Positions 40,591-60,072 are shown, counted from the stretch's first letter. The stretch is DNA of 64,000 nt from an uncultured Actinomycetes bacterium (GCA_903873715.1 CAIQPS010000094.1:40-64039), one strand, 5' to 3'. Notes: a model not told the origin generated them from the sequence alone. Program-made: numbers and translations.

Positions 40591-40640
40591 TTAAGTTACG
40601 CGATTCTTCTAGGGACAGAAATGTGATATTAGTTAACTAG
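40591..40640 (+). promoter_or_regulatory. Island promoter/operator motif, copy 1
   Basis: TTAAGT-N6-ATTC-N15-TGTGATATTAGT, overlapping palindrome TAGTTAACTA (40630-40639); same motif on - strand at 48848-48890. Confidence 0.65.
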
Positions 40641-40665
40641 CGATCGAGCGGAAAGGGGTATTGGG

Positions 40666-41460
40666 GTGGGCCAGCAACAGATGTCTCTCTCAGCGTTGGG
40701 AAGGCTCTTCGATCTCAGTGGCAAGGTCGCTGTCATCAGCGGTTCGAGCGGGGCGTTTGGCAACGCCATCGCTAGAGGACTGGCTGCCCATGGAGCCGAC
40801 GTGGCGCTGTTGGACCGTGTCGGTCCGGTCTCCGCGACAGTGGGCGAGATCGAGTCGCTCGGCCGCCGGGCCTTGGCGCTCACCTGCGACGTCACCGACG
40901 AGCAGAGCGTGGAGGCCGCCATGGATGCGGTTGCCAAGGACTTGGGCAAGATCGACGCCTTGTTCGCGGTGGCAGGCATCGCGGTGCGCCGGGCCTCGGA
41001 AGAACTATCGCTCCCCGATTGGCAGAGGGTCATGGATGTGAATGTGAAAGGTACCTGGCTTTGCTGCACCGCTGCGGGGAGGCACATGATCCGCCAGGGC
41101 CATGGCGGAAAGATAGTGACGATCGGGTCGGTGCGCGGCTTTCTGGGCCACCCGGCAGGGTATGGGGCCTACGGTACGTCCAAAGGCGCCGTACATCTTT
41201 TGACTAAGCAACTCGCTACGGAATGGGCGAAGTACGGGATCAACGTGAATTCCATCGCGCCCTCCGTCTTCTACACCACGCTCAACACGCCCATCATGGA
41301 GAACCAGGAACTGAGCGATCTTTTCCTCTCGAGGATCCCGATGCACCGTTTCGGCCAGCCGGACGAACTCGTCGGCGCCTCGGTGTTTCTGGCTTCGCCA
41401 GCCTCAGACTACGTCACCGGTCTGATTCTGTCCGTCGACGGTGGCGCGGTCGCCGGGTAG
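40666..41460 (+). CDS. SDR oxidoreductase (gluconate 5-dehydrogenase/KduD-like)
   Basis: FDLSGKVAVISGSSGAFG, YGTSKG, EWAKYGINVNSIAP, VDGG. Confidence 0.9.
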   Translation: MGQQQMSLSALGRLFDLSGKVAVISGSSGAFGNAIARGLAAHGADVALLDRVGPVSATVGEIESLGRRALALTCDVTDEQSVEAAMDAVAKDLGKIDALFAVAGIAVRRASEELSLPDWQRVMDVNVKGTWLCCTAAGRHMIRQGHGGKIVTIGSVRGFLGHPAGYGAYGTSKGAVHLLTKQLATEWAKYGINVNSIAPSVFYTTLNTPIMENQELSDLFLSRIPMHRFGQPDELVGASVFLASPASDYVTGLILSVDGGAVAG

Positions 41461-41520
41461 TCGTCCCATGTCCGTCGTCAGCATCGTTTTGACACTTCTT
41501 GCGCCTACGGAGGTGCGCGG

Positions 41521-42654
41521 ATGAGAGCCATCAGGCTACATGGCAGAGGCGATATCCGTTTGGAGGATGTCCCGGCCCCTGGCAGCCTCGGGCCGCGGGA
41601 CGTTCTTATCAAGCCCCGGTTCTGCGGTATTTGCGGGACCGACCTTCACGAGTACGTGGAGGGGGCGCGCGTAGTGCCGAGCAAGCCCCATCCCATGACC
41701 GGCGCGATGCTTCCCCAGATCCTGGGTCACGAGTTGAGTGCCGATGTCGTGGAGGTCGGCACGGATGTCGTCAACACCAAGCCGGGCGATCGCATAGCAG
41801 TGATGCCCGAGATCTCCTGCGGCCGCTGCTACTACTGCCAGCGCGGCTGGAATCATCTGTGCACTCTCCATGCGTGCGTCGGTCTCAGTTGGGCGTGGGG
41901 AGGCTTTTCGGAATATGCGGTCGTACCCGACTACAGCGCGGTTGTGCTGCCAGACGCAGTCTCGTACGAACAGGGAGCACTTCTCGAACCCACCGCCGTC
42001 GCCGCGTACGCAGTGGAACGGGGCCACCTTCAAGGAGGGGGGTCGATCCTCATCGCCGGTGCGGGCCCCATCGGCATCCTTGCCGCGCTCTACGCTCGGG
42101 CGATCGGGGCGGGTGCGGTCTACATCACGGAGACCAACGTGAAGCGCCTCGATCTGGCACGGTCTCTGGGCGTGTCCGAGGTTTTCAACCCAGCGGCCCC
42201 TGAGCGGGCCGCCGCCCGGAAACAGGGGAGAGACACGGCCACCGGCGTGTTCGACCCGTCGAAGAGTTGGGTGGTGGACGCACTTCGCGAGCGCACCGGA
42301 GGGGTCGGGGTCGATGTGGCTGTCGACTGTACGGGGAACGAGTTCGGGTTGAACACATGCATCAACGCAGTCAGGAGTCGCGGGACGGTCGTCGAGTCGG
42401 CGCTGCACGTTCAGTCGCCTACCGTGGACATGTATGCGCTCGGTCTGAAGGACGCGAGCCTCGAAGCCACTTGGTGCTTCAACGTCTACGACTTCCCCAG
42501 GTACGCCTCTCTCATCGCGGCAGGCCGGCTACCGGTGGAGAAGGCGATCAGCGCGAAGATCCCGCTGGAGGACGTGGACGAAAAGGGTTTCAAGGTGCTC
42601 ACCGACCCGAGCGGCGGCGCGACCAAGATCCTGGTGTACCCGGAGGCACACTAG
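41521..42654 (+). CDS. Zn-dependent alcohol dehydrogenase (2,3-butanediol dehydrogenase-like)
   Basis: CGICGTDLHEY, GHE, CGRCYYCQRG..C, GAGPIG. Confidence 0.9.
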   Translation: MRAIRLHGRGDIRLEDVPAPGSLGPRDVLIKPRFCGICGTDLHEYVEGARVVPSKPHPMTGAMLPQILGHELSADVVEVGTDVVNTKPGDRIAVMPEISCGRCYYCQRGWNHLCTLHACVGLSWAWGGFSEYAVVPDYSAVVLPDAVSYEQGALLEPTAVAAYAVERGHLQGGGSILIAGAGPIGILAALYARAIGAGAVYITETNVKRLDLARSLGVSEVFNPAAPERAAARKQGRDTATGVFDPSKSWVVDALRERTGGVGVDVAVDCTGNEFGLNTCINAVRSRGTVVESALHVQSPTVDMYALGLKDASLEATWCFNVYDFPRYASLIAAGRLPVEKAISAKIPLEDVDEKGFKVLTDPSGGATKILVYPEAH

Positions 42655-42662: not shown

Positions 42663-43595
42663 ATGCAGTTCGGCACTGACACCCGGGCGGGCGGTCCACG
42701 TTCTCGTCTGCGCATCTCAGCCGGTAGTCTGGCCTTGGTGGTTCTCCCTCTCGTCTGGGCGTACGGCTGGACCGCGGCGAAGATAGGCGTGGCGTCGGCG
42801 GAACCCTTCATGGTGGGTGCACTACGCAATCTGGGGGCTGCGGTCGTCATCCTCGCCGTCGCCGCCTTCGCCCGGCGACCTCTTCGTCCGAGACCATTGG
42901 GCTGGCTGATCCTGCTTGGAGTCCTCCAGACCAGCGGGATGGTCGGTCTGTCAATGTGGGCTCTGCAACAAGGAGGCGCGGGTAAGGTCTCCGTACTCGC
43001 CTACACGATGCCGTTCTGGCTGCTGCTGCTCGCCGCGGTGTTCCTAGGCGAACGCATCCACGGTGTGCAGTGGGCCGCAGTGGTGTGTGCGCTGGCCGGA
43101 CTCGTGGCGATCATCGCGCCGTGGCGTCTCGCTGGGGTCGGCGGCAGTCTTCTCGCCGTGGGAAGCGGCTTGTTCTGGGCTGCCGGAGCGGTGGTGGTTA
43201 AAGTCATACGGAGCCGCTACGAGTGCGATCTTCTGGCGCTTACCGGCTGGCAGATGCTGTTCGGTGTGATTCCGCTGGCCCTCGTGGCTGCTCTGACCTT
43301 CCGTGAGGCTCCCCACTGGAACGGCTCGTTCATAGCCGCGTTGGGCTATCTCGTGGTGTTCTCCGAGGCGCTCGGTTGGTGCCTGTGGGTGTACGTGCTG
43401 AGGAAGATGCCTGCTTCCACGGCGGGTATAACGGTGCTCGCCACGCCGGTCATCGCGATACTAATGTCCTGGGCACAACTGGGGGAGCGGCCGGGCGGGA
43501 TGGAGGCGGTGGGGATGGCGCTGGTGGTGGTGGCGCTCTTCCTCATAACGGTCGGCGCCGTTATTGCGAGAAGAAGCGATAAAGGCGTGGGCTGA
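42663..43595 (+). CDS. EamA/DMT family transporter
   Basis: About 10 TM; YTMPFW..FLGER, TGWQML, LGERP. Confidence 0.88.
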   Translation: MQFGTDTRAGGPRSRLRISAGSLALVVLPLVWAYGWTAAKIGVASAEPFMVGALRNLGAAVVILAVAAFARRPLRPRPLGWLILLGVLQTSGMVGLSMWALQQGGAGKVSVLAYTMPFWLLLLAAVFLGERIHGVQWAAVVCALAGLVAIIAPWRLAGVGGSLLAVGSGLFWAAGAVVVKVIRSRYECDLLALTGWQMLFGVIPLALVAALTFREAPHWNGSFIAALGYLVVFSEALGWCLWVYVLRKMPASTAGITVLATPVIAILMSWAQLGERPGGMEAVGMALVVVALFLITVGAVIARRSDKGVG

Positions 43596-43598: not shown

Positions 43599-44177
43599 CT
43601 ATCTCGAGGGAACTCCCTCGGGATCGGACGTCGGATAGCCGATGGCAGAAACTCGAGACGCCACACTCTCCATCCGCAGCCGGCGTTTGGACAAGCGCAG
43701 GGCCAACTCGTCTGCGAGAGACCCTGCCCAAGCCATTTCCTTGTCTCGGAGGCTAGCCAGGTACCGGCCGGTGGCCTCGAGGTCGGCGAGGAACCGAGCG
43801 CGGACGTCACCGGGCTCGAAGCCGAGGTCTACTGCATACGTGAAGACCCAACGGTCACCCTTGATGGCGAGTGGCACGTCGAACTCCGCCGAGGGAAGAT
43901 AATTGACAAGGAATCCAGCGGGCATGACGGTCTTGACGTGGAACATGAGTTCCACTCGCGGGTTGACGGCCGACGCGATCTCGAGATGGTCGAGCCAGAT
44001 GCACTCTTCGCACAACTGCGGTACCCCGACGCGGCGTCCAGTCACCAGCGAGACCGCCTGGGCCTGGAGGTCGGCGTCCGGGTGGGGGTCCACCTCGAAC
44101 TGGTCCGCTTCCGCCCTGGCATCGTCCGCGGATCGGGCAAGCAAACCATCCAGCATGACGTTGTTGAATGTCAGCAT
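43599..44177 (-). CDS. Hypothetical protein
   Basis: 192-aa ORF with GGAGG RBS filling the gap between EamA and the divergent ORF; amphipathic C-terminal helices. Confidence 0.6.
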   Translation of the reverse strand: MLTFNNVMLDGLLARSADDARAEADQFEVDPHPDADLQAQAVSLVTGRRVGVPQLCEECIWLDHLEIASAVNPRVELMFHVKTVMPAGFLVNYLPSAEFDVPLAIKGDRWVFTYAVDLGFEPGDVRARFLADLEATGRYLASLRDKEMAWAGSLADELALRLSKRRLRMESVASRVSAIGYPTSDPEGVPSR

Positions 44178-44260: not shown

Positions 44261-45079
44261 TTGAAACGCAGTCTCTTCAAAGCTCCAGCCCCCCGCTTTC
44301 ACTCCTGGCCCCAGGTCCTTGCCGAACCCGCGTATTGGCGCGCTGACGAGTTCATGGTCGCCAGCACCGCGCTTGAGCACGCGGCCGCATACCTGCTTCG
44401 GCGGTATGTGTCGCGGTCGCCCGCTGGGGCGGATGACACTGCGGGTCTTGGCCGCCACATCATCATGACCGGCGCAGTCGCCGGTCGCTCTATGCAGCAG
44501 GCGGCGCACTCCCGGAACGGCGCTCCGCCGAAGTCGGGTCAGGCAAGCATCGACTCGTCTGCCGTCGACTCGGTGCTCTTCACGCATATGCATGCCCCGC
44601 AGGTCTCCGCTCTTCGCGGGACCGAACGCAGCATGCTGTGCTTGTCCGGCAACGCAGAGCGGCCATCGGGCGGATTCCGGTCCTTCCCATTCGATCCCCT
44701 GTCCTTCGCGGCCCGCCTCGAGGAGTTCGATTTCGAGCGAGCCCCGGAGATGGCGCCACTCGGCCCGTGCATCGACGTCCTGGGTGACGGGAGCCTCTGG
44801 GCCATCTCCACCCCAGGCCCGACGATCGGATGTGTGTCGTACCTGGTGCTGACCGTGGGCGGTCCCCTTCTTGTCGCCGGTCTTCTCGCCGAGGCTCTCA
44901 GGTCCGGCGAGCCCGCTGTGGCCGGGCGTCACAAAGAGTTGGGCCGTTTTAGCCTCCAGCGCCTGCGCGCGTTTCTCGACTTCTATCCCGCCGTCCGCGT
45001 AGCACCTGGGACCGGCTACGAGAGCCCGACTTCGAGGATGGTGGATGGCGAGGAAGTCACCCAGGGTCTGTTCGAGTAG
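44261..45079 (+). CDS. Degenerate metallo-beta-lactamase-fold protein (AHL-lactonase-like)
   Basis: VDSVLFTHMH, DVLGDGSLWAISTPG.T.G, LLVAG; most metal ligands substituted. Confidence 0.6.
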   Translation: MKRSLFKAPAPRFHSWPQVLAEPAYWRADEFMVASTALEHAAAYLLRRYVSRSPAGADDTAGLGRHIIMTGAVAGRSMQQAAHSRNGAPPKSGQASIDSSAVDSVLFTHMHAPQVSALRGTERSMLCLSGNAERPSGGFRSFPFDPLSFAARLEEFDFERAPEMAPLGPCIDVLGDGSLWAISTPGPTIGCVSYLVLTVGGPLLVAGLLAEALRSGEPAVAGRHKELGRFSLQRLRAFLDFYPAVRVAPGTGYESPTSRMVDGEEVTQGLFE

Positions 45080-45111: not shown

Positions 45112-46176
45112 TCAGAAAACCACCATGACCTTTACCGCCTCGGCCTTATGCGAAACGGCGATGTCTACCGCTCCATGAAGGTCCGCGAACGGCACGCGAT
45201 GCGAGATGAGAGTGGTGAAATCGGCCGTTCTGCGCGCACGGTCCATGAACCGGATCGTGCGCGGGGTGAAGTCCGAGACGCCGCCCTGTCCGTAGATCGA
45301 CATACCTCTCCAAAGGGTCTTGCCGATCTCCACCGGCACTTTGTGGCCCACCGTGTGCCCTATCAGCCGGACTCGGCACTGGAAGCCGGCGACATCGAAG
45401 ACCGAGGCGACCGCACCATCGTTCCCCGATGCCTCCACCACCAGGCTGGGACCTCTTCCCGCAACACACACCTGGGCGATCTGCGGGGCCAACTCCCCGG
45501 CCGGTGGTGGTGTCAGGGTGACATCGGCTCCCAACCGCGTAGCGAGGGCCAGCCGGTTGGGCAGCGGATCGACCACCACCACTCGAGCTCCAGCCGTCTT
45601 GCAGGTAATCAGCGCGCTCAGCCCGATGGGGCCCGCGCCGAAGATCACCACGTCATCGCTCGCGTCCACCCAGCCACCGGGCCCCCATATACCGTAGTAG
45701 CCGACGCCGAACGGCTCCACCAAAGCACCTTCTTCGGCCGTCCAATCATCTGGGAGCCTGTGCAAGTAGCTGTCTTCGATAACCAGATACTCGCCCCACG
45801 CTCCGGGGGAATCCGGCCGGAAACCGGCCTCCCGCATGTTCAGGCAGGCCGCGGGCATCAGGCCCTGCTTGCAGTTGGCGCATCTGAAGCATTTGAGGAC
45901 GCAGTCTCCGGTCACCTTGTCGCCGACGGCGAATCCGGAGACCATATCTCCCAGCGCGGCAACCTGACCGGCCCATTCGTGTCCGGGGGTGTAGGGAGCG
46001 AGGTCGTATCGCCCTTCCTTGGATTCGCCCTCGAAGCATTCGACGTCCGACCCGCAGATGCCGGCCGCCTGAACACGAACGAGCACCTGGCCCGGCCCCG
46101 GGTCGGGGATGGCCAGGTGCTCGATTCTCAAGTCGTGCGGACCATGCAGGAACGCGACTTGTTGTGTTCGGGGCAT
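45112..46176 (-). CDS. Zn-dependent alcohol/polyol dehydrogenase
   Basis: GICGSD, GHEW, CFRCANCKQG..C, GAGPIG. Confidence 0.9.
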   Translation of the reverse strand: MPRTQQVAFLHGPHDLRIEHLAIPDPGPGQVLVRVQAAGICGSDVECFEGESKEGRYDLAPYTPGHEWAGQVAALGDMVSGFAVGDKVTGDCVLKCFRCANCKQGLMPAACLNMREAGFRPDSPGAWGEYLVIEDSYLHRLPDDWTAEEGALVEPFGVGYYGIWGPGGWVDASDDVVIFGAGPIGLSALITCKTAGARVVVVDPLPNRLALATRLGADVTLTPPPAGELAPQIAQVCVAGRGPSLVVEASGNDGAVASVFDVAGFQCRVRLIGHTVGHKVPVEIGKTLWRGMSIYGQGGVSDFTPRTIRFMDRARRTADFTTLISHRVPFADLHGAVDIAVSHKAEAVKVMVVF

Positions 46177-46183: not shown

Positions 46184-48238
46184 TCAGACCTTGCAGGCGG
46201 TCTCCCGCGCTTCGGTCAGCGCGTTGATTATCAGCGACGAATCCACACCGTTGCCGCAACCGATGCTGTAGACCTCGGGGACGTCCCCGTCTATCTCGTG
46301 CTTGAGCCGGTCGTTCGCGCCCGGAGGAAGCAGGACCATGACAGTGTCGGCCGCTAGGGCGCGCTTCGTGCCGTCTTTCAACGTGATGTCGACGCCGCTG
46401 TCCGTGATCTTGTCATAGGTGACCCCGGTCAGCACTTCGACGCCCTCCTTGGCCAGCCAGGGCAGCGTCCGCTTGATGTAACGCGGAGGCATGCGACCGC
46501 CAAGACTCTCCGACTCCTCGAGGACCGTCACCGTGCGCCCTCTCTTCTTCAGGAAGACCGCGCCCTGCAACCCTTCGATCTGGCCGCCGATGATCACCAC
46601 CCGCTTGCCGACGCCCGGCAGGGCTATGTTCGAGAGCTTGCCGACGGCATTGGCACCCAGCATGCGAAGTGGCCGCTCAGCGGTCCGGGCCAGGCTCGCG
46701 ACTCCTTCGACGTTCCGGTTCAAGATGCCCGGTATGTCCTCGGGCAGCACGTAGTTGCCGCCCACTGCCAGTATCACCACGTCAGGTTTGTTCGCCAGCA
46801 CCACGTGCTTGTCGGCTTCCACGCCTGTCTTGATGGTTATGGGCAGACGCTGGACCTGACGCGACAGGTAGTCGATGACCGTGGTGACGTCGTCGAAGTC
46901 GGTCCCCTTCAGCATCGCGGCAAGGTGCAACTTGCCTCCCAGGTGGCCACTCCTCTCTAGGAGAATCACGTCATGACCACGAAGGGCGGCCACGCGGGCA
47001 GCTTCCATGCCAGCCGGCCCTGCCCCGACCACCAGGACCTTCTTCTTCGTGGGAGCGGGGGTGATAGCCAGTTCTTTTTCACGGCCAAGAGCCGGGTTCA
47101 CGCGGCAGCGGCGAGGCCCGTCTTGCGGGTCTTCGCAGGTGGCGCAGCGGCAGCACCTGACGATGTCTTCCCTGTTCCCCGCCAGCACCTTGTTGGGCAA
47201 CTCGTGGTCGGCCCACAAGCCTCGGCCGAGCAGGATCAGATCGGCCTTGCCATCCTTCAGGATCTCCTCACCCAAGTCCTCATCCAGGCGGCCGACAGCG
47301 ATGACTGGGATGCCGACCGACTTCTTGACGGTCGCGGCACTCGGCACCAGGAGACCCGTCTTGAACTGCTTCACGTACGGTTTCATGAAATCGTCCGGTT
47401 CCGGATACGGCCAGTAATCCGGGACGTACTGGAATGGGGCCTTGCCGTACCCATACCCCGCCAGGCTGATGTAGTGGGCTCCGGCGCGCTCGAACCACGT
47501 CCCGGCCTCGGCGGCCTCCGCCGGCGTCATGGCTTTCGGATGGCCGAACTCCTGCCCGTTGATCCGCACTCCGATGACGAAGTCCTCGCCGCACCGCTCT
47601 TTGATCCCCGCGATGATCTCCCGGTGCAAACGGGTGCGGTTCTCCATGCTTTGCGGCCCGTACTGGTCGGTACGATAGTTCCACGCCCTGCTGAGGAAGC
47701 TCATCAAGAAATAGCCGTTCGCCGAGTGGCACTCGATGCCGTCGAAACCGCATTTCTTCGCACGCACCGCGGCCTCGATGTAGTCGGCCTTCATGGCTTC
47801 GATCTCCTCGGTGGTCACGCCGTGCGTGGGAGCGAGATAGTCGAGAGGCAACTGGTCGACGGTCAGCGTCGTAGAGGCGAGAGGGGTGTAGGTCGTTGAG
47901 ATGGGCGCCGGCCCAGGGTGATGCAGTTGCGCGAGTATGTGGCAGTCGTGTTTGTGCACGGCCGCGGCCAGTTCGGTCATCCCTGGGATGTGGCGGTCTT
48001 GTGAGAGCCCGCCGAAAAGGAAGGGCAGTTCCGGCTCCGCCGGCTGGAACAGGATGGCGCCGACGAGGATCATGCTCGCCCCGCCCTCCGCGATACCTTC
48101 ATACAGATCGATCACCCGGTTGGTGATCATTTGCCCCTCGAGCCAGTACTCGCTCGACTGTGGAGCCTTGACGATGCGGTTCTTCAGCGTCAGGCTTCCG
48201 ACCTGCAAGGGGGAAAAGAGCCTCTCGTAATTCTTCAA
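46184..48238 (-). CDS. NADH:flavin oxidoreductase, OYE TIM barrel plus 4Fe-4S plus FAD domain (FadH/BaiCD/enoate reductase-like)
   Basis: LKNRIV.AP, QLHHPG, GFDGIECHSANGY, RTDQYG, CCRCATC..CRVNP, VVGAGPAGMEAA. Confidence 0.9.
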   Translation of the reverse strand: MKNYERLFSPLQVGSLTLKNRIVKAPQSSEYWLEGQMITNRVIDLYEGIAEGGASMILVGAILFQPAEPELPFLFGGLSQDRHIPGMTELAAAVHKHDCHILAQLHHPGPAPISTTYTPLASTTLTVDQLPLDYLAPTHGVTTEEIEAMKADYIEAAVRAKKCGFDGIECHSANGYFLMSFLSRAWNYRTDQYGPQSMENRTRLHREIIAGIKERCGEDFVIGVRINGQEFGHPKAMTPAEAAEAGTWFERAGAHYISLAGYGYGKAPFQYVPDYWPYPEPDDFMKPYVKQFKTGLLVPSAATVKKSVGIPVIAVGRLDEDLGEEILKDGKADLILLGRGLWADHELPNKVLAGNREDIVRCCRCATCEDPQDGPRRCRVNPALGREKELAITPAPTKKKVLVVGAGPAGMEAARVAALRGHDVILLERSGHLGGKLHLAAMLKGTDFDDVTTVIDYLSRQVQRLPITIKTGVEADKHVVLANKPDVVILAVGGNYVLPEDIPGILNRNVEGVASLARTAERPLRMLGANAVGKLSNIALPGVGKRVVIIGGQIEGLQGAVFLKKRGRTVTVLEESESLGGRMPPRYIKRTLPWLAKEGVEVLTGVTYDKITDSGVDITLKDGTKRALAADTVMVLLPPGANDRLKHEIDGDVPEVYSIGCGNGVDSSLIINALTEARETACKV

Positions 48239-48283: not shown

Positions 48284-48745
48284 CTAGCCCTCGGACTCGA
48301 CCAGCTCCAGGCAGATGCCGTCGGGGTCTCTGAAGTAGCACCATTTCCAGTCGGGCTTCCCAGTCTCCTTGAAGACATTGATGGGAGAGTGGAACTCGAC
48401 GCCCAGATCTTCAAGACGCTTGCGTTCTGCCGCCACGTCGTCGACTCTGAGAGCCAGGTGGGCCGATCCTGCGATCGAGGGGTTCATATGATAGGGCTGG
48501 CAGGCCGGGTCCTTGTACTGGATGAACTCGATCCGATTGCCGGCCAGTTCCATCACCGCGATCTCGAGTTCCGCATGGGACTGGCTGAGGCCCCACTTCG
48601 TTCCGAAGAGCGCGGTGCCCAGTCCGTCGTACTCGTTGCGGCTGCGGGAGCGCAGCGTCAACCCGAGCACATCCTTGTAGAAGTGCACGGTGTCCTCGAT
48701 ATCCGTGACCGAGAAGCTCATGTGGTGCGCGCCTAGAATTGACAC
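48284..48745 (-). CDS. VOC family protein, paralogue of 22294-22803
   Basis: HHMSFSV, IEFIQY, AHLA, YFRDPDGICLELVE; GGGAG RBS before GTG. Confidence 0.9.
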   Translation of the reverse strand: MSILGAHHMSFSVTDIEDTVHFYKDVLGLTLRSRSRNEYDGLGTALFGTKWGLSQSHAELEIAVMELAGNRIEFIQYKDPACQPYHMNPSIAGSAHLALRVDDVAAERKRLEDLGVEFHSPINVFKETGKPDWKWCYFRDPDGICLELVESEG

Positions 48746-48847
48746 TCGATCTCCCTTCTCGCCGGCGCAGATGTTCGGCGTGTTGATGCCTTGCGCCGGG
48801 TCCTCGGGTGTTCTGCCGCCGATTGTTCTTGCTCTGCCCGGTGTTTT

Positions 48848-48890
48848 ACTAATATCACAGCAATGGCGAAGTGTGAATACCCACACTTAA
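48848..48890 (-). promoter_or_regulatory. Island promoter/operator motif, copy 2
   Basis: Minus strand TTAAGT-GTGGGT-ATTC-N15-TGTGATATTAGT; also contains inverted repeat AAGTGTG..CACACTT (48869-48888). Confidence 0.65.
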
Positions 48891-49099
48891 AGGACGAGAG
48901 GCACGTGCGGTAGGCTGACTCGTCTCCGAATCGCCCGACGTCCGGTAGACCCGAAGCGCCTCTTGCTGCATGAAATTGCTGTAAATCATGGGTTTATTGG
49001 CAGCCGCAAACCCGTGGGTCGCGGTAGACATACCAGGGGGAGCCCGTGCCAGGGAGATTGTTTCCCCAAAGAAAATTCCCGTCTCAGAATTCGCAACTA

Positions 49100-49140
49100 G
49101 TTAAACTCCTCTTGACTTTTGTTTAACCCAGCCCTATGGT
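49100..49140 (+). promoter_or_regulatory. Sigma70-type promoter with flanking inverted repeat
   Basis: TTGACT (49112-49117)-N17-TATGGT (49135-49140); GTTAAAC-N14-GTTTAAC straddles the -35. Confidence 0.7.
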
Positions 49141-53188: not shown

Positions 53189-54184
53189 GTGAGTAGTGAA
53201 GTGACGACAACGGCATCAGCCACTGTCGGGTCGACGAAAGCCCGGAGGATCCGGCTCCAGGGACCTGTGTTGGCTCTGATGTCTCTCGTGCTGCTGTTGA
53301 TAGTGTTCTCCGCCTTGAACGCCAGGTTCTTCAGCGTGGACAACCTCTACAACATCTTGAGAGGCACGTCCGTGCTCCTCGTGGCCGCTTCCGGTGCCAC
53401 GTTCATCATCATGATGGGCAGTATCGACCTGTCTGTCGGCGCGGTGGTGGGCGGGGTCGGCATCGTCGCCGGCGTCCTCCTGCGTGACTATGGGACCGGG
53501 GCCTGGACGATCCTGATCGTATTGGTCCTTGGATTGATCATCGGCGCCTTCAACGGCTTTCTCTTCGCCTACATAAAGCTTCCCAGCTTCCTGGTGACAC
53601 TCGGCTCGCTCAGTATCGTCGTCGGCCTCTCGGACGTGCTGGTGAACGGCGTCCCGGTGCAAGTCGATCGGCACCAGGCGTTCGTGAAGATCCTCGGAGG
53701 GACGATCAACAACTTCCCGATCATCGCCCTCTGGGCCATCTTCGTGGTGATCGTCTGCATAATCGTTGCCTTCAGGACCAGGTTCGGCCGCTACATGTTC
53801 GCGCTGGGCGGCGGCGAGAGGGTGGCCGCGCTGGCCGGTCTGCCTGTTCGGCGTTACAAGCTGTACGCCTTCCTGGTGGCCGGCGTACTGGCCGCTTTCG
53901 CGGCTTGCCTGCTGACCGCCCGCCTATCCTCGGGCTCGCCGGGCATGGGCGACTCCTATCTGCTCGACTCGATCGCGGCTGTCGTCATGGGCGGCACGGC
54001 TCTGAGCGGCGGCGTCGGCGGCCCGCACCGGACCATCCTGGGGGCGCTCATCATCGGCGTCCTAAGCAACGGTCTGAACCTGGTCGGCGTGGACCCGTTC
54101 TGGCAGATGGTCGTAAAAGGCTTCGTCGTGATCGTTGCGGTCATCATGAGCATCGACCGGTCGAAGATCCAGATCGTCAAGTAA
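53189..54184 (+). CDS. Sugar ABC transporter permease (RbsC-like)
   Basis: IDLSVG, LPSFLVTLG, TRFGR, IAAVVMGGTALSGG. Confidence 0.95.
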   Translation: MSSEVTTTASATVGSTKARRIRLQGPVLALMSLVLLLIVFSALNARFFSVDNLYNILRGTSVLLVAASGATFIIMMGSIDLSVGAVVGGVGIVAGVLLRDYGTGAWTILIVLVLGLIIGAFNGFLFAYIKLPSFLVTLGSLSIVVGLSDVLVNGVPVQVDRHQAFVKILGGTINNFPIIALWAIFVVIVCIIVAFRTRFGRYMFALGGGERVAALAGLPVRRYKLYAFLVAGVLAAFAACLLTARLSSGSPGMGDSYLLDSIAAVVMGGTALSGGVGGPHRTILGALIIGVLSNGLNLVGVDPFWQMVVKGFVVIVAVIMSIDRSKIQIVK

Positions 54185-54295: not shown

Positions 54296-55318
54296 TTGAA
54301 AGGCTTCGTCATCACCGCCCCGAACGAGTACGCGTACCAGGACTTCCCCGATCCGGTCATCAGCGACGACGAGGTCCTCATCAAGTCCCGGGCGAGTGGT
54401 ATCTGCCATTCGGACTACGAACTGATCTCCGGGCAGTACATCATCCCGTTCACGTACCCCGTGATCCCGGGCCACGAGTGGTCCGGAGAAGTGGTGGACG
54501 TAGGCAGGAACGTCACCCGGTTCAAGGCCGGCGACCGGGTCGTGGGCGAGTGCGTCATCGGTTGCGGAGCGTGCCCCATCTGCCAGAGCGGGAACTTCAC
54601 CAACTGCCCGACTTCCGATCACTTCGGTTTCACCATCAACGGCGCCCATGCTGAATACCTGAAAGCGAAGCCTGAGTGGCTGCACAAGCTGCCGGACGCC
54701 GTCTCCTACAAGCAAGGAGCGCTCATCGAGCCGTTCAGCGTGGCCTACCACGCGATCGTGGCCAACGGGGGAACCGACGCCAGCGAGGTCGTGGCTGTTC
54801 TGGGCGGCGGCCCCATCGGCCAGGCTGCCGTTGCCGCGGCCAGTGGTATGGGTGCACGGGTCGTGCTCATCGAGCCGTTGGCCCATCGTCAGGAGATCGG
54901 CAAGAAACTGGGCGCGACGACGGTCGTCGACCCGACCTCGGCTGACGCGGTAGAAGTGGTCAAGGAGATGACCGGAGGCTTCGGTGCTGACCTCGTGATC
55001 GAATCGGCCGGTGTAGACGCTTCGCTGGCATCGGCGTTCAACCTGCCTAGGAACAACGGGCGCATCTCGTTCGTGGGTATCAATATCGGCAAGGTCATCC
55101 CGGTGGAACTGGGCAAGATCCAGGCAAGAGGCCTACAGGTCAAGGGGATGGTCGGCTCTCCATACGTCTGGGAACGGTGCATCGCTTTCCTCGCGCACAG
55201 CGGCAAAGACATCTCTCCGATCGTTACCCACGAGTTCAAGTTGGACGAGGTGGAGGATGCGTTCACCCTTGCTTCAAAACGTTCCGAGTGCATCAAGGTG
55301 ATGGTGTTCAACGACTAG
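54296..55318 (+). CDS. Zn-dependent alcohol/polyol dehydrogenase
   Basis: GICHSD, GHEW, CGACPICQSG..C, GGGPIG; AGGAGG RBS with TTG start. Confidence 0.9.
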   Translation: MKGFVITAPNEYAYQDFPDPVISDDEVLIKSRASGICHSDYELISGQYIIPFTYPVIPGHEWSGEVVDVGRNVTRFKAGDRVVGECVIGCGACPICQSGNFTNCPTSDHFGFTINGAHAEYLKAKPEWLHKLPDAVSYKQGALIEPFSVAYHAIVANGGTDASEVVAVLGGGPIGQAAVAAASGMGARVVLIEPLAHRQEIGKKLGATTVVDPTSADAVEVVKEMTGGFGADLVIESAGVDASLASAFNLPRNNGRISFVGINIGKVIPVELGKIQARGLQVKGMVGSPYVWERCIAFLAHSGKDISPIVTHEFKLDEVEDAFTLASKRSECIKVMVFND

Positions 55319-55438: not shown

Positions 55439-56128
55439 ATGGCTGAAGATCAAGAAATGCCTGCAGTCGTAGAGCGTCTGACCCAGCTGGGCCTGAAGAT
55501 CCGCGAGGCTCGCCGCATGCGCGGCCTGACTCTCCAGGAGCTTGCAGGGAAGGTCGGCCTCACGGCGAGCCACATCAGCCAGATAGAACGTGGGCTCACG
55601 AGCCCGTCTGTGAGTGCGCTCTTGAGCATCGCAGGTGCGCTCGATCTCCCCATGGAGCACTTTTTCGCCCACGAGCAAGACGCCCCGATGATCGCACGCT
55701 CGGTCCTTTCAGCTCACGCGCTCCTCACCAGACAACCGGCCCCTGGCAACGGCTCGCAGGGTGCCGAGGCCTCGACGCGCTCACGAAGCGGTGAGAAGAG
55801 CCCAGTGGTCATCCCCGAGGACCGGGAGACCATCAACATCATCGGCGGCATCCAGTGGCAGCGGCTGACGCCGACCAACGAGGAGGCAATCGAGTTCCTC
55901 GAGTTGCACTACGCGCCGGGTGCGTCGAGCGGGGAACACGCATATGCTCACCGCGGGAGAGAGTTCGGCCGTGTGCTACAGGGCACGCTGCTCGTCGAGC
56001 TCGGTTTCTCTAGGTACACGCTTCACGAAGGCGATGCCATCACCTTCGATTGCAGCATTCCGCATCGTTTCACCAACATAGGCGACGATCCGTTCATCGG
56101 TGTGTGGGTGATCCTCGATCGGCTGTAG
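55439..56128 (+). CDS. XRE-family HTH plus cupin transcriptional regulator
   Basis: GLTLQELA..SHISQIERG..PS; C-terminal H.G.EF..GDAITFD..PHRF. Confidence 0.9.
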   Translation: MAEDQEMPAVVERLTQLGLKIREARRMRGLTLQELAGKVGLTASHISQIERGLTSPSVSALLSIAGALDLPMEHFFAHEQDAPMIARSVLSAHALLTRQPAPGNGSQGAEASTRSRSGEKSPVVIPEDRETINIIGGIQWQRLTPTNEEAIEFLELHYAPGASSGEHAYAHRGREFGRVLQGTLLVELGFSRYTLHEGDAITFDCSIPHRFTNIGDDPFIGVWVILDRL

Positions 56129-56164: not shown

Positions 56165-56396
56165 TCATACGTCTCTGACCCGAACTGGGTTCTCTTTCTC
56201 CACAATCGTCCTCCGGCGCTTGTAGCTCCTGTGCACGCAACCGTCAGATTGCGCTCCCATGAGTTTGGGTCAGCTGAAATTCATCCTGTCAGTTGAAATG
56301 CTAGTTGAATTATTGGTGGCTACGTTGTAATTTGGCATTCGTACCCAGGTAATGCCGATGTCTCCCGCGATGACGGGGACCGAGGAGGCGATCTGC

Positions 56397-56756
56397 ATGT
56401 CAGGCAAGCTCTGCAAAGTCACCAAGGACAGCACGTGGGTGACCGAAGTGCCCAATCACATCGCGTACCGCTTGACCCCGATGGTGAGCCCCAAGACCTG
56501 CCCTGGCGCGCAGATCGAATTCTATGTAGGGGAGTTCGAACCGGGCAAAGGGGGGGCGATCCCGCATACCCACGCCAAAGAGGACCATGTCTTCTACGTG
56601 CTTTCCGGCCGCGCGACCTCCAAGGTTGGCGACGAGGTCCACATGTGCGAGCCCGGTGACGCCCTATGGGTCCCGGCGGGCGAGATGCACGACTTCGACG
56701 TGGTCGGCGGCGAGACCTTCCGCGTCATCGCCATCTTCTCGCCGCCTCGCGCGTAG
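56397..56756 (+). CDS. Cupin domain protein
   Basis: PHTHAKEDHVFYVLSG..GD.LWVP.GEMH; GAGGAGG RBS. Confidence 0.88.
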   Translation: MSGKLCKVTKDSTWVTEVPNHIAYRLTPMVSPKTCPGAQIEFYVGEFEPGKGGAIPHTHAKEDHVFYVLSGRATSKVGDEVHMCEPGDALWVPAGEMHDFDVVGGETFRVIAIFSPPRA

Positions 56757-56798: not shown

Positions 56799-57701
56799 AT
56801 GGGAACGGTAGGTTTCGTTGGCGTCGGCAAGATGGGATCGCGGATGGCCAACAGGCTCATCGACGCCGGACACCAACTCACGGTCTGGAACCGGCAGGAC
56901 CCGTTCTTCGAGGAGAACGTGAGGCCTCTGGCGGCCAAGGGCGCCACGATCGCGTCGAGCCCCGCTGAGGCGGCCGACTCGAAAGACATCTGTTTCGTGA
57001 ACGTCGCCGATGGTCCCAGTCTGAAGGAAGTGTGCCTGGGAGCCGGCGGGATCCTTTCGGCGGTCACTCTGCCCAAGCTGCTCGTCGACATGGCGACAGT
57101 CGGGCCTTGGGAGTCTGAGGAGATCGCGGCCGCGGCGGCTGCCAAGGGTGTGGGGTTCCTGCGCTCACCCGTGAGCGGTAGCACCGTGCTTGCCGAAGCG
57201 GGCAAGCTCACGGTCATCGCGTCGGGCGCGAAGGAAGACTACGATGCGGCGGATCCCTATCTCGCCTCCATCGGTGAGATCCGGTACTACGTGGGCCCGG
57301 GCGAGAACGCCCGCTACCTGAAGCTCATCTTCAATCTGAACATCTTCGCCCAGATGCAGATCCTTGCGGAGAGCGCTGTGCTCGGTGAAAAAGGCGGCCT
57401 CGACTGGAGCGAGATGTTGGAGGTCATCACCTCGAGCGTAGCGGCTTCTCCGTTCGTCAAGTACAAGATCCCGCCGATGCAGAAGAGGGACTACAGCCCG
57501 GCCTTCACCCTCGGTCTGGCGCGGAAGGATGTCAAGCTCGCTCTCGAGGCCGCACGCCGGGCAGGCGTCGACATGCCGGTGACAGAGCTGGTGCTGAACC
57601 TGCAGGAGCAGGCCATGGACGAGGGCCTCGCCGATCTCGACGTGGCTGCCGTGACTCTTTGGTACCAGAAGAAGGCGGGGCTCGAGGCTAACGACCAGTA
57701 G
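56799..57701 (+). CDS. NAD(P)-dependent beta-hydroxyacid dehydrogenase (3-hydroxyisobutyrate/tartronate semialdehyde reductase family)
   Basis: GFVGVGKMG, PVSGS, LKLIFN catalytic Lys, KDVKLAL. Confidence 0.9.
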   Translation: MGTVGFVGVGKMGSRMANRLIDAGHQLTVWNRQDPFFEENVRPLAAKGATIASSPAEAADSKDICFVNVADGPSLKEVCLGAGGILSAVTLPKLLVDMATVGPWESEEIAAAAAAKGVGFLRSPVSGSTVLAEAGKLTVIASGAKEDYDAADPYLASIGEIRYYVGPGENARYLKLIFNLNIFAQMQILAESAVLGEKGGLDWSEMLEVITSSVAASPFVKYKIPPMQKRDYSPAFTLGLARKDVKLALEAARRAGVDMPVTELVLNLQEQAMDEGLADLDVAAVTLWYQKKAGLEANDQ

Positions 57702-57833: not shown

Positions 57834-58535
57834 GTGAAACGACCCAGATTGATCGATCTCAGCCAGGAGATCTTCGAAGGCGCCCCGGTGTTCTCCGGCC
57901 ACCCAGAGACCAAGATACGGGTGGCGGATACCTTCGAGCAGACGCGGCTGCGCTATGAAGAAGGCTACGGGTATGTCACCGAGACCATCGACATGAGTAC
58001 CCACGGAACCACTCACGTCGACTCGATAAGTCACATCGATCCGTCCCCGGGCGCCTCCACGATAGACCGGATCCCGCTTGAATGGTTCTACACGGAGGCC
58101 GTCTGCCTCGACATCTCCGGCTCTCCCGCTCGGACCTACTTCACCGTGCCCATGATAGAAGCAGCTCTGCTCAAGGATGATCTCGACATCCGCCCGGGGG
58201 ACACGGTGCTGATCAATTCGGGGCATTACGAACGGCGCTGGGGCACGCCCGCGTGGCTCACCGATTATCCGGGGCTCACCCGAGAAGCTGCCGAGTTCAT
58301 CTTCGGCAAGGGCGCGGTGAACATCGGCCAAGATGCTCCGAGCATAGACTGCGTTCTCACCAGGAGCTTTCCGGCGCATCAGGTCTGCCGCGAGATGCAA
58401 AGGATCAACACTGAGAATCTCGCCGATCTGAGGCCGATCACCGGCCGCCGGTTCATATTCTGCGCGTTCCCGCTCAAGATCCGCGGCGGCAGCGGGTCAC
58501 CCGTGCGCGCGGTGGCCTTCATCGAGGAAGAGTAG
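57834..58535 (+). CDS. Cyclase family metal hydrolase (kynurenine formamidase/isatin hydrolase-like)
   Basis: IDLS, HGTTHVDS..H, GQDAPSID, ENL, PLKI.GGSGSPVRAVA. Confidence 0.9.
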   Translation: MKRPRLIDLSQEIFEGAPVFSGHPETKIRVADTFEQTRLRYEEGYGYVTETIDMSTHGTTHVDSISHIDPSPGASTIDRIPLEWFYTEAVCLDISGSPARTYFTVPMIEAALLKDDLDIRPGDTVLINSGHYERRWGTPAWLTDYPGLTREAAEFIFGKGAVNIGQDAPSIDCVLTRSFPAHQVCREMQRINTENLADLRPITGRRFIFCAFPLKIRGGSGSPVRAVAFIEEE

Positions 58536-58558
58536 ACCCCCTCACCAAGGAGCAGCCG

Positions 58559-59638
58559 ATGGCTGGACCGGGCACAGAAATGAAAGCTGTCGTGTTGGAT
58601 GGACCAGGGAGCTTCCAGGCGCGCCCGCTCCCCATCCCGGAGCCGCGCGGCGACGAAGTGCTTTGCCGGGTGATGTCGGTCGCGATCTGTGGCTCCGACC
58701 CGAAGATCGTCAAAGGAGCCACCCGGCCTACATGGCCGCCGTCCTACCCGTTCGTCATCGGACACGAGTGGGCCGGCGAGGTGGTCGGTGGCTCGGCCGA
58801 TCTCGCTGCCAGTCAGGCCGCGAAGTTCCGCCCCGGGACGAGGGTGGCCGGCGAGGCGCATAAGGGCTGCGGGTCCTGCGAGAACTGCCTGCGGGGTAGA
58901 TACAACCTTTGCCTCGACTATGGGAATGAGGCGGCCGGGCACAGGCACTACGGATTCACGTCTCAGGGCGCGTACGCGGAATACATCGCGGTCTCCATCC
59001 AAGCTCTCCATCTCCTTCCTGACGCGATCTCTTTCGACCAGGCCGCGATGCTCGACACTGCAGGGGTGGCGGTGCATGCGGTCCAGCGGGGCCGCATCGG
59101 CATCGGGGACACCGTAGTGGTCGTCGGGGACGGGCCGATCGGGATCCTGACCATGCAGTACGCGCGCACTGCGGGAGCCGGCGAGGTCATCGTCGTCGGT
59201 TCCGGACCCCGGTTACAGATGGCCCGAGAACTGGGGGCTACCGGCGTCGATTTCACCGACGTCGGCGGGTCGATCGACCGAGTGGTCACACTCACCGGAG
59301 GCATGGGAGCCGACGTGGTGTTCGAGTGCGCGGGTATCCGCTCGTCCTGCGAGCAGTCGGTGATGATGGTGCGAAAGGGCGGCCGGCTGGTGATGGTTGG
59401 CAATCCTATCGAGCCAGCGACGATACCCTGGGGCAAGGTCAGCTTGGACGAGATCGAACTCATAGGCTGCCGGGCGAACCCGAATGTCTCCGACCGCGCG
59501 CTACGGCTGATCTCGACCGGGGTGATACGCGTGGAGGGCCTCATCACACACAACTTCCCTCTGGACGACTTCGGCGAGGCGTTGGCCACCTTTGTCGAGC
59601 AACGGGACGGGGCCATGAAGGTGGTAGTGAACCCATAG
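58559..59638 (+). CDS. Zn-dependent alcohol/polyol dehydrogenase
   Basis: AICGSD, GHEW, CGSCENCLRG..C, GDGPIG. Confidence 0.9.
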   Translation: MAGPGTEMKAVVLDGPGSFQARPLPIPEPRGDEVLCRVMSVAICGSDPKIVKGATRPTWPPSYPFVIGHEWAGEVVGGSADLAASQAAKFRPGTRVAGEAHKGCGSCENCLRGRYNLCLDYGNEAAGHRHYGFTSQGAYAEYIAVSIQALHLLPDAISFDQAAMLDTAGVAVHAVQRGRIGIGDTVVVVGDGPIGILTMQYARTAGAGEVIVVGSGPRLQMARELGATGVDFTDVGGSIDRVVTLTGGMGADVVFECAGIRSSCEQSVMMVRKGGRLVMVGNPIEPATIPWGKVSLDEIELIGCRANPNVSDRALRLISTGVIRVEGLITHNFPLDDFGEALATFVEQRDGAMKVVVNP

Positions 59639-59658
59639 CGCTCGAGGAGCGGATACCG

Positions 59659-60072
59659 ATGGGATCGAGTGCAGAGCGACTTGCGATCATGAACGCACTC
59701 AGCAGTTACGCGTGGGGCAACGACACGCGGGATCTCGCACTTCTGGCCGATTGCTTCACCGAGGATGCGATATGCAGCGGGTACGTGGAGGAGCAGTTGT
59801 GCTGGGGACCGATCGCTGGCCGTGACAACATCGTCAGAGAACTGTCCGCCCGCGTCCCGGCCGAAGGGATACGCCGCCACCACATCGGCAGTATCCGCTT
59901 CGTCAAGGTCGAGGATGGAGAGGCCCATGTGGTCTCCTACATGGTCGTCACGCACGCACAGGATGGGAAGGCGACGCTCGAGACGACCGGCTGGTACAAG
60001 GACACCCTCATAGGTGAAGGAGACAGTTGGCGCTTCAAGGAGAAGGAGTGGCACATCGACTGTGCCGTGTGA
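59659..60072 (+). CDS. NTF2/SnoaL-like protein (LinA/BaiE-type fold)
   Basis: YAWGND.RD..LADCFTEDA, RRHH, G.Y.D..WRF; GAGGAG RBS. Confidence 0.82.
   Translation: MGSSAERLAIMNALSSYAWGNDTRDLALLADCFTEDAICSGYVEEQLCWGPIAGRDNIVRELSARVPAEGIRRHHIGSIRFVKVEDGEAHVVSYMVVTHAQDGKATLETTGWYKDTLIGEGDSWRFKEKEWHIDCAV

Follow-up and report, generated by a model that had tools for sequence, protein, structure and literature searches.

The closest described counterparts of the locus considered here come from separate parts of bacterial catabolism. In Thermotoga maritima, IolG, IolM, IolN, and IolO oxidize myo-inositol twice to a diketone and open the ring hydrolytically, without ring phosphorylation. Huang et al., in a 2015 JACS article, are said to have found that the D- and L-threitol as well as erythritol clusters of Mycobacterium smegmatis end in ketose kinases and isomerases. 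The cyclase family of hydrolases includes DPGC, a dihydrophloroglucinol cyclohydrolase described as a Mn-dependent retro-Claisen C-C hydrolase (PMC10470551, excerpt). Here we describe a ~20.3-kb island in a 64,000-nucleotide stretch of DNA (hereafter the window) from an uncultured Actinomycetes bacterium (GCA_903873715.1, CAIQPS010000094.1:40-64039), in which a CUT2 ATP-binding cassette (ABC) importer is encoded together with seven dehydrogenases, a flavin- and iron-sulfur-containing reductase, and a cyclase-family hydrolase. We propose that the island is one acquired regulon of four units that would import a neutral polyol or cyclitol and break it down by oxidation, dehydration, reduction, and hydrolysis without phosphorylation, a reading that we place about midway between likely and unlikely.

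A Horizontally Acquired Island of 19 Genes

Open reading frames were called by length and third-position GC and scanned against Pfam and NCBIfam. The host assembly (169 contigs, 3.33 Mb, 96.9% complete) has a GC content of 66.9%, while that of the island is 62.8%, and none of 555 20-kb windows across the assembly is lower. This bears out the visibly lower GC noticed in an earlier reading of the window made from the DNA alone (the sequence-only reading). GC content at third codon positions (GC3) is 0.76-0.86 in the island, as compared with mostly 0.85-0.96 in the upstream genes. The flanking genes, a PBP5-type carboxypeptidase gene (36,802-38,262) and an LOR/SDH-like gene (61,761-63,026), are separated by 23.5 kb here and by 1.8-4.5 kb in those seven of eight same-genus genomes in which both lie on one contig. 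The sliding GC and codon analysis and the sister-genome comparison that the sequence-only reading had suggested agree: GC is lowest in the island, GC3 is lowered, and the flanks adjoin in 7/8 sisters.

Four sister loci were compared by tblastx, and none of the four holds any island gene. In these loci a cyclophilin gene is followed, directly or after ~1.1-1.3 kb of unrelated DNA, by a small gene (60,623-60,919 in the window) and a methyltransferase gene. Because this comparison shows where synteny breaks, the edges of the acquired block can be placed at ~40,284 and ~60,595, slightly wider than the 40,591-60,072 first delimited, with 19 intact genes within 40,666-60,072. A TetR-family gene has lost its 5′ end exactly at the right boundary and overlaps the end of the last island gene, g19, by 38 nt.

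Taken together, deviant GC and broken synteny identify the segment as a horizontally acquired genomic island, one that has no mobility-gene hallmarks. Integrase and transposase families were absent from the Pfam matches of the window genes, a search of the window for tRNAs and Rfam elements was negative, and the only direct repeat at the edges was a 12-nt GC-rich one that is indistinguishable from chance. Repeats inside the island are short and of low identity, apart from a terminator hairpin. The island sequence is present in only two runs, both of DNA and from one lake-water study, with no RNA run listed for it, and contigs from these runs cover all 30 bins; one spans the right junction, and the contigs may derive from the same data as the assembly.

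Immediately to the left of the island (38748-40283, minus strand) lies a gene for a 511-aa lipoprotein with Gly/Thr/Val-rich repeats and no Pfam match, which is by impression beta-helix-like. The spot is variable even without the island, since this gene is present in one sister genome (G001) and absent from two others (G002 and G007).

Gene Content, Operon Layout, and Promoters

The 19 genes form four transcription units and one pair (Table 1), with a single regulator gene (g14) and a single importer. A hairpin with 22-nt arms (56116-56164) overlaps and trails the g14 stop codon and divides an 11-gene plus-strand array into two units, and a 16-bp hairpin (51508-51542) stands 3′ of g10. The inventory given by the sequence-only reading was correct in Pfam and NCBIfam: four zinc-dependent alcohol dehydrogenases (Zn-ADHs), two short-chain dehydrogenases/reductases (SDRs), one 3-hydroxyisobutyrate dehydrogenase (HIBADH)-type enzyme, an old yellow enzyme (OYE)/4Fe-4S/FAD reductase, a VOC protein, a cupin, a cyclase-family protein, a SnoaL-like protein, an EamA transporter, an XRE-cupin regulator, and the CUT2 importer. 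Every family that it named is present; its list omitted two genes, g04, which has no family, and g05, which resembles metallo-beta-lactamase (MBL)-fold proteins. It also claimed that kinases, aldolases, transketolases, and glycosidases are missing, and none of these families has a Pfam match among the 19 genes, between which intergenic gaps are all at most 433 nt.

Table 1. Features of the island, with identities of orthologues on the metagenome contig L117 and in the sister genome G006 (positions are those of the window; DH, dehydrogenase; HTH, helix-turn-helix)
Feature	Position	Strand	Unit	Assignment	L117	G006
Left edge and g01 promoter region	40284..40665	+		Placed by synteny and motifs		
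g01	40666..41460	+	g01-g03	SDR, gluconate-5-DH / KduD / GolD-DthD type; under all those cut-offs		
g02	41521..42654	+	g01-g03	Zn-dependent polyol DH; best solved relative (R,R)-butanediol DH, 6ie0		76%
g03	42663..43595	+	g01-g03	EamA/DMT membrane transporter	73%	
g04	43599..44177	-	Pair g04, g05	192 aa, no family	47%	
g05	44261..45079	+	Pair g04, g05	272 aa, divergent MBL-fold-like	44%	
g06	45112..46176	-	g08-g07-g06, divergent	Zn-dependent polyol DH; last gene of divergent operon	79%	68%
g07	46184..48238	-	g08-g07-g06, divergent	OYE (FMN) + 4Fe-4S + FAD/NAD(P) reductase; enoate / 2,4-dienoyl-CoA / 2-naphthoyl-CoA reductase class	81%	
g08	48284..48745	-	g08-g07-g06, divergent	VOC (glyoxalase fold); first gene of divergent operon	84%	
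Divergent promoter region	48746..49178	.				
g09	49179..49979	+	g09-g14	SDR, acetoin-reductase / 2,3-butanediol / sorbitol DH type	80%	
g10	50077..51495	+	g09-g14	CUT2 substrate-binding lipoprotein	73%	
g11	51647..53170	+	g09-g14	CUT2 ATPase, two fused ABC domains	81%	
g12	53189..54184	+	g09-g14	CUT2 permease (BPD_transp_2)	85%	
g13	54296..55318	+	g09-g14	Zn-dependent polyol DH; best solved relatives ketose reductase, sorbitol DH	92% (cut by contig end)	
g14	55439..56128	+	g09-g14	XRE-HTH + cupin regulator		51%
g15	56352..56756	+	g15-g19	Small cupin		59%
g16	56799..57701	+	g15-g19	Beta-hydroxyacid DH, tartronate-semialdehyde / sulfolactaldehyde / L-threonate DH type; under all cut-offs		65%
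g17	57834..58535	+	g15-g19	Cyclase-family metal hydrolase		76%
g18	58559..59638	+	g15-g19	Zn-dependent polyol DH, sorbitol-DH type		56%
g19	59659..60072	+	g15-g19	SnoaL_4 / NTF2-like protein		
Right edge, TetR-family gene without 5′ end	60035..60595	-		HTH profile matches only from position 11; no start codon ahead		

The sequence-only reading spoke of shared promoter motifs, and there are indeed two AT-rich motifs that scarcely occur outside the four promoters of the island; because both patterns were defined after looking at the sequence, their enrichment is indicative only. Of one, TGTGATATTAGT, the 3.33-Mb assembly has just two copies, which lie upstream of g01 (40622-40633) and of g08 (48848-48859, minus strand). 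The other, CTAGTTRA, occurs 11 times in the genome, and its only three copies in the window lie upstream of g01, g09, and g15. The g01 promoter has the palindrome TAGTTAACTA with CTAGTTAA (40633-40640, minus strand), the g09 promoter has CTAGTTAA at 49097-49104, and the g15 promoter has CTAGTTGA at 56301-56308. Ahead of g09 there is also a TTGACT-17-TATGGT promoter (49112-49140), which is kept on the metagenome contig L117. In a spacer that has otherwise diverged, that contig conserves the block upstream of g08 (GGTGTTTTACTAATAYCACAG and GAATACCCACACTTAAAG) as well as the g09 promoter.

Dehydrogenases, Importer, and Other Enzymes

The seven dehydrogenases all belong to polyol or secondary-alcohol types, with sorbitol, ketose, threonine, and 2,3-butanediol dehydrogenases as their best solved relatives. 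The four Zn-ADHs and both SDRs best match ketose reductase, sorbitol dehydrogenase, threonine dehydrogenase, (R,R)- or meso/L-2,3-butanediol dehydrogenase, and SDR-type sorbitol dehydrogenase. In their translations, all four Zn-ADHs retain the catalytic Cys/His/Glu residues and the four-Cys structural zinc motif, and both SDRs retain YxxxK. IolM (NF041097) is the top NCBIfam model for g02, g06, and g13, but no island Zn-ADH is an IolM equivalog, because all four score 174-242 bits against a cut-off of 450 (g13, 241.8; g02, 195.6; g06, 191.3; g18, 173.9). Similarly, g16 scores 178 against the tartronate-semialdehyde reductase equivalog cut-off of 341. No island protein reaches an NCBIfam equivalog cut-off, and the only model passed in the island is the generic SDR subfamily model NF005559, by g09 (217.1 vs. 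215 bits).

The importer belongs to CUT2 by PF13407 in g10, PF00005 in two stretches of g11, and PF02653 in g12. The substrate-binding protein (SBP) g10 combines a Tat-like signal and an LASC lipobox with a Thr/Ala linker and with an extended C terminus that bears the motif HPDDWD. Its best solved matches are named CUT2 SBPs (4rs3, 5hko, and 4rsm), the match being partial (93 bits over residues 211-381). We take these three structures to be CUT2 binders of the M. smegmatis tetritol study, with xylitol and threitol as ligands. A word search returned 13 full-length homologues of g10, the best at 66% identity; species genomes contain 212 weaker relatives at no more than 41%. Trp, Asp, Tyr, and Lys abound in the C-terminal extension (residues ~385-472, ~85 aa), whose conserved HPDDWD marks a subfamily that appears in 212 species-genome stretches; in Agrobacterium, the subfamily gene carried by pAt plasmids follows the lactonase gene aiiB.

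The closest solved structures to g07 are 2-naphthoyl-CoA reductase and 2,4-dienoyl-CoA reductase, and its translation retains the CxxCxxC...C cluster motif and an HxxNGY motif. A BaiCD-type identity of g07, as suggested by the sequence-only reading, is not supported: against NF041087 (BaiCD), it scores 313 bits where the cut-off is 825, and it likewise falls short of the long-form bilirubin reductase (321 vs. 750) and mycofactocin OYE-2 (349 vs. 793) models. Eight full-length database proteins are related to it at 72-83% identity. OYE paralogues in related genomes have SDR genes nearby and no VOC or Zn-ADH neighbors. The OYE/4Fe-4S/FAD family is expanded in this lineage, with 14 full-length paralogues (30 matches) in the host and 2-31 matches in each of the relatives G001-G024 of the same family; many of these paralogues, in host and relatives alike, adjoin Tat-lipoprotein SBPs of Peripla_BP_6 type. 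The start codon of g08 is supported by a 153-aa orthologue on L117 (84% identical). The contig also carries a native paralogue of this VOC protein, 26 kb upstream (22294-22803, minus strand) and 54% identical to g08.

The cyclase-family assignment of g17 rests on PF04199 (109.7 bits) and on an HxGTHxDxxxH metal motif that aligns with that of isatin hydrolase (5nnb); the arylformamidase equivalog score is below cut-off (45.8 vs. 223 bits). Homologues of g17 number dozens in metagenomes at 60-79% identity, and named ones at 59-65% come from anaerobe-type metagenome-assembled genomes (MAGs), e.g., of Desulfatiglandales and Anaerolineae. An orthologue search in 400 sampled genomes of a second phylum returned at best 40-45% identity. 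Around cyclase homologues in nine other Actinomycetota genomes, the fetched stretch included a nearby SDR gene in five, a Zn-ADH gene in three, and an HIBADH gene in one. On a Paracoccus plasmid, a 41% identical cyclase gene stands beside genes for a 30% identical XRE-cupin and a CUT2 ATPase and permease. The setting of that cyclase (L105; Paracoccus sp. plasmid p5, NZ_CP115763.1) is otherwise nitrogen-metabolism-flavored for the subfamily of g17, with genes of Rid, M20 peptidase, and adenine-deaminase-like type to one side and the XRE-cupin, truncated CUT2 ATPase, permease, and ribokinase genes to the other.

The Asp...His dyad is catalytic in LinA. The predicted structure of g19 is a confident NTF2-like barrel (pLDDT 96.7) in which, among 60 relatives, Asp22 is invariant and His74 is kept in at least 90%. 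Among solved structures, those nearest to g19 are dioxygenase beta subunits, Rv3472, a putative scytalone dehydratase, LinA, and ActVI-ORFA-type proteins, and a search of PDB sequences at E = 0.01 returned no match. A BaiE-type identity, as the sequence-only reading had it, finds no specific support, since BaiE is outside the 60 best profile matches and 4l8p ranks 39 in Foldseek (TM 0.71, 15% identity). From the fold and dyad, a dehydratase or eliminase role for g19 is plausible, though not specific. Among 1.84 billion cluster representatives, g19 is alone in its 50%-identity cluster, and its next relatives are 37-40% identical.

Two proteins are without an assigned family. For g04, neither Pfam nor NCBIfam gave a match even at E = 5, and its structural neighbors are unnamed proteins; it is kept in the same position on L117 at 46-47% identity. 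g05 also had no Pfam or NCBIfam match at E = 5. Its MBL-like character comes from ESM-Atlas features and motif reading only, and its metal motif is degenerate (HxHxDH to THMHAPQ, TPGH to TPGP), as it also is in the L117 copy, at 44-46% identity.

Recurrence of the Modules in Other Genomes

When JGI metagenome contigs were scanned with g07, four loci came up. One, the 15.4-kb contig L117 (61.6% GC), repeats g03-g13 in the same layout: g13-g12-g11-g10-g09 is divergent from g08-g07-g06, after which come g05, g04, and g03 (identities in Table 1). This contig also has a g15-like cupin gene (50% identity) and two further, non-orthologous Zn-ADH genes. A second metagenome locus, L118, again has an SDR gene with divergent VOC and OYE genes. 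An SBP homologue (64%) and an OYE homologue (81%) are both listed with a 21,583-bp ENA contig, and their equal contig size suggests that they share it.

The sister genome G006 carries a different subset of orthologues, at another chromosomal place (contig C10, 601-626 kb) and grouped around a CUT2 transporter of its own (Table 1). There, the g02 orthologue follows a CUT2 SBP gene and an SDR gene. Other members of the cluster are another cyclase gene, more SDR and Zn-ADH genes, and an HpcH/HpaI aldolase gene that lies at the edge. The surrounding stretch (G006:C10:600001-626000) has a GC content of 59-62%, and several of its genes look split, which may reflect assembly frameshifts. The sequence-only reading would have counted itself refuted if its sub-operons never co-occurred in other genomes. 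Because they recur together on L117 and in G006, its proposal is not refuted on that ground.

Proposed Catabolic Route and Its Alternatives

The gene families, the intact cofactor and metal motifs, the operon layout, the acquisition, and the recurrence of the modules are observed; the substrate class, each of the reactions, and their order are predicted from them. The substrate is likely neutral and rich in secondary hydroxyls, i.e., an alditol, a vicinal diol, or a cyclitol. The lipoprotein g10, with g11 and g12, would import this compound, and the XRE-cupin g14 would sense it or a product. g09 and g13 would oxidize secondary hydroxyls to ketones in NAD(P)-linked reactions, in which g01, g02, and g18 may assist, with pairs of opposite stereospecificity handling epimers. 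Through its Asp/His dyad, g19 could remove a beta-hydroxyl to give an enone, and g07 would reduce the C=C bond, re-consuming reducing equivalents from the oxidation step and thereby balancing redox in an anaerobe. Next to the carbonyl, the VOC protein g08 may act as an epimerase or isomerase, and the Zn-ADH g06 may adjust the carbonyl itself. g17 would then cleave a (di)keto or lactam/lactone-like intermediate, g16 would process a hydroxy-acid or semialdehyde product, and the EamA protein g03 might move a product or a second substrate.

The sequence-only reading had envisaged a non-phosphorylative oxidize-dehydrate-reduce-ring-open pathway for a polyhydroxylated, possibly nitrogen-containing ring. 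The discrete acquired unit, the co-occurring sub-operons, the polyol-type dehydrogenases, the CUT2 SBP, the lack of a kinase or aldolase, and the failure of any equivalog to match all agree with it, while the BaiE and BaiCD identities find no specific support. Ring opening by g17 need not involve an amide, because the cyclase family also contains the C-C hydrolase DPGC (PMC10470551, excerpt).

Several results weigh against the single-pathway proposal. The full 19-gene set was found nowhere: L117 ends inside g13, before g14-g19, and G006 lacks orthologues of g03, g04, g05, g07, and g19, has an SBP only 26-31% identical to g10, and does not show the island motifs (themselves defined post hoc) in its cluster region. 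Around SBP relatives in species-representative genomes, none of 73 loci had g03, g04, g05, g15, g17, or g19, and the same loci yielded one 29% match to g07 and one 32% match to g08; only g09-type SDRs, Zn-ADHs, HIBADH (6/73), and XRE-cupin (6/73) recurred. The SBP family does not fix the ligand class, since its neighborhoods vary widely, from a GMC oxidase with an enolase-superfamily gene, an MBL/AiiB lactonase, luciferase-like monooxygenases, an acetoin-dehydrogenase-like E1 with SDRs, and an amidase to a Baeyer-Villiger monooxygenase with SDR and MBL genes. The spread of the modules also differs (SBP 13, OYE 8, cyclase dozens, g19 a singleton), which fits a mosaic. Finally, a missing downstream step may lie outside the island, given the HpcH/HpaI aldolase at the edge of the G006 cluster.

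The alternative that survives best, though somewhat unlikely in our view, is that only a core of the island works together. The transporter with g09, g02, g13, and perhaps g01, g16, and g18 would scavenge small acyclic polyols or vicinal diols, namely C4-C6 alditols or compounds like 2,3-butanediol; the stereoisomers would be funneled by R- and S-specific dehydrogenases to a ketose or acyloin, which enzymes encoded elsewhere would feed into central metabolism, and the OYE/VOC, cyclase, and SnoaL genes would be passengers. The two enzyme types that most often neighbor the SBP relatives are indeed g09-type SDRs, 46-50% identical to g09 in five actinobacterial loci (L079, L034, L032, L070, and L030), and g02-type Zn-ADHs (42-48% in L079, L032, and L055), one of which, at 76%, comes right after the SBP-SDR pair in G006. 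The best solved relatives of g09 and g02 are meso/L- and (R,R)-2,3-butanediol dehydrogenases, the closest solved SBPs of g10 are the CUT2 binders named above, and Rhodococcus and Frankia loci join the SBP family with an acetoin-dehydrogenase-like E1, two SDRs, and an XRE-cupin. Moreover, the OYE and cyclase families are generic tools in this host, because it has 14 full-length OYE paralogues and eight cyclase-family genes. However, L117 has the OYE operon joined divergently to that of the transporter, at 79-84% identity and with a conserved shared promoter region, which argues for selection on the pair, and the g01 and g08 promoters have in common a 12-mer that is unique in the genome. The known tetritol and ketose kinase routes are not evident, because the genome is without Dak1 and has only one FGGY match.

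A bolder form of the proposal, which we consider unlikely, would make the island an as yet undescribed anaerobic, never-phosphorylating route for a cyclitol or alicyclic polyol, with paired dehydrogenases and an NTF2 eliminase that remove hydroxyls, OYE enone reduction that recycles the reducing equivalents, and a DPGC-like retro-Claisen opening of the carbocycle by g17, and with g04 and g05 as new accessory components.

Quite unlikely, too, is the reductive transformation of a plant hydroaromatic or polyphenol-related compound (a quinate- or shikimate-like acid, an enone derived from a flavonoid or lignan, or a ring of (dihydro)phloroglucinol type). Enone reduction by the OYE, epimerization by the VOC protein, ketone reduction by the SDRs and ADHs, and retro-Claisen opening by the cyclase-family enzyme would then run as in the equol, bile-acid, and phloroglucinol pathways. 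Dihydrodaidzein racemase is presumably VOC-like, a likeness that the open-access texts searched did not confirm. The host, an anaerobe-type organism of lake water, has numerous OYE/Fe-S paralogues together with rubrerythrin and a corrinoid-methyltransferase cluster, and anaerobe-type MAGs are the source of the named g17 homologues at 59-65%. The three-part architecture of g07 is that reported for daidzein reductase (PMC9164157, excerpt), and DPGC, next to an SDR reductase, opens cyclic 1,3-diketones (PMC10470551, excerpt). Against these likenesses, a CUT2 sugar-type SBP and four sorbitol-dehydrogenase-type Zn-ADHs are foreign to known polyphenol clusters; the island has no Pfam match to BKACE/TAL, thiolase, CoA ligase/transferase, or THDR-type flavoprotein families, and scores lie far under the cut-offs of the equivalogs for BaiCD, bilirubin reductase, and mycofactocin-OYE.

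It is very unlikely that the island is an accreted mosaic of oxidoreductase cassettes without a common pathway, its AT-rich motifs being ordinary promoter elements of a donor lineage: the four modules do differ in phylogenetic spread, gene order differs among the host (G000), L117, and G006, the motifs are not found in G006, and the island contains a TetR gene that is truncated as well as an MBL-like gene that is degenerate, but the modules recur together in two independent comparators (L117 and G006), all 19 genes are intact with catalytic motifs, there is one regulator gene and one importer, and, within 3.33 Mb, a 12-mer stands in two promoters of the island and nowhere else.

Host Genome and Neighboring Loci

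The host is an anaerobe-type lake-water actinobacterium with rubrerythrin and a corrinoid-methyltransferase cluster. Its genome has one FGGY, two PfkB, zero Dak1 (PF02733), and zero HpcH/HpaI matches, three CUT2 SBPs above the Pfam cut-off, eight cyclase-family genes, and five SnoaL_4 genes. A native cluster (L123; G000:C132:1-14000) encodes a B12-binding protein, a CUT2 SBP, ATPase, and permease, a URO-D-like protein of corrinoid methyltransferase type, an OYE/Fe-S/FAD reductase, a molybdoenzyme of the xanthine-dehydrogenase family, and cyclase-family and radical SAM proteins. This cluster may serve to demethylate and reduce a methylated compound of sugar-like or aromatic nature. Because this native cluster also joins CUT2, OYE/Fe-S, and cyclase genes, the island is a further member of a design that recurs in the lineage.

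Elsewhere in the window, a second stretch of lower GC (62-64%; 6502-9815) has genes for a TetR regulator, for a Tat-lipoprotein SBP of Peripla_BP_6 type, and for an Amidohydro_2 enzyme. A 1074-aa protein (12648-15872) joins lectin-like and TIG domains to a papain-family C1 peptidase.

As an ABC-linked catabolic island, the segment is well bounded and has an unusual enzyme set, and its SBP offers a direct handle on the ligand. If the proposal is right, this compact, transferable gene set would let a sugar-kinase-poor anaerobic freshwater actinobacterium use a polyol-like compound by redox chemistry and hydrolysis alone. It would also give a new substrate or reaction to three mostly unassigned families (the CUT2 SBPs with an HPDDWD tail, the OYE/Fe-S/FAD reductases, and the cyclase-family hydrolases) and functions to the two conserved proteins g04 and g05.

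Comparison with Known Systems

The statement of the sequence-only reading that the island matches no recognized pathway is upheld: no equivalog cut-off is reached, and the island lacks what defines the iol, IolM, bai, phloroglucinol, and tetritol systems. The open-access texts searched yielded nothing relevant on this enzyme combination or on an anaerobic inositol diketone route. Two groups of candidates were rejected by family content. The classical iol operon was set aside because the 19 genes include no IolG (Gfo/Idh/MocA), IolE (xylose-isomerase-like TIM barrel), IolD (thiamine diphosphate-dependent), IolC kinase, or IolJ aldolase families. The sulfoquinovose, non-phosphorylative rhamnose/fucose, levoglucosan, and quinate routes were excluded in that enolase/ILVD dehydratase, FAH, Gfo/Idh/MocA, and xylose-isomerase-like TIM barrel families are absent from Pfam matches.

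The bai and equol (DZNR/DDRC/DHDR) sets share with the island an OYE/4Fe-4S/FAD reductase together with SDR/ADH enzymes, and both represent anaerobic deoxygenation by oxidation, elimination, and reduction. To these enzymes, bai adds an NTF2-fold dehydratase and equol a small racemase. In contrast to these sets, the island is without a CoA ligase/transferase, a BaiG-type MFS transporter, and THDR, its importer is of CUT2 type, and its host is from lake water rather than gut. In the Clostridium scatologenes phloroglucinol pathway (PGR, DPGC, TfD, and TAL), a cyclase-family hydrolase likewise stands beside NAD(P) dehydrogenases in a phosphorylation-free route in which redox steps precede a retro-Claisen opening of the ring (PMC10470551, excerpt). 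The island lacks the BKACE/TAL and the TfD of 3-hydroxyacyl-CoA-dehydrogenase type that adjoin the cyclase gene in that cluster (PMC10470551, excerpt), as well as thiolase. It does encode a sugar-type ABC importer and four polyol Zn-ADHs.

The M. smegmatis tetritol clusters resemble the island in being actinobacterial, in their CUT2 importer, whose SBPs are the best solved matches to g10, and in having an SDR (GolD/DthD-type) and a Zn-ADH beside the transporter. They differ in that the island has no kinase or isomerase, PF02733 having zero matches in the 96.9% complete genome; the match of g10 to their SBPs is partial, and g10 adds the HPDDWD C-terminal extension. To our knowledge, those clusters contain no OYE/Fe-S, VOC, cyclase, or SnoaL genes. 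With the Thermotoga route, the differences lie in the families themselves, as the island has no Pfam match to Gfo/Idh/MocA IolG, IolN, or IolO and its only ring-opening candidate is the cyclase-family enzyme, while the likeness lies in the phosphorylation-free logic and in IolM as the top-scoring model for three of the four Zn-ADHs.

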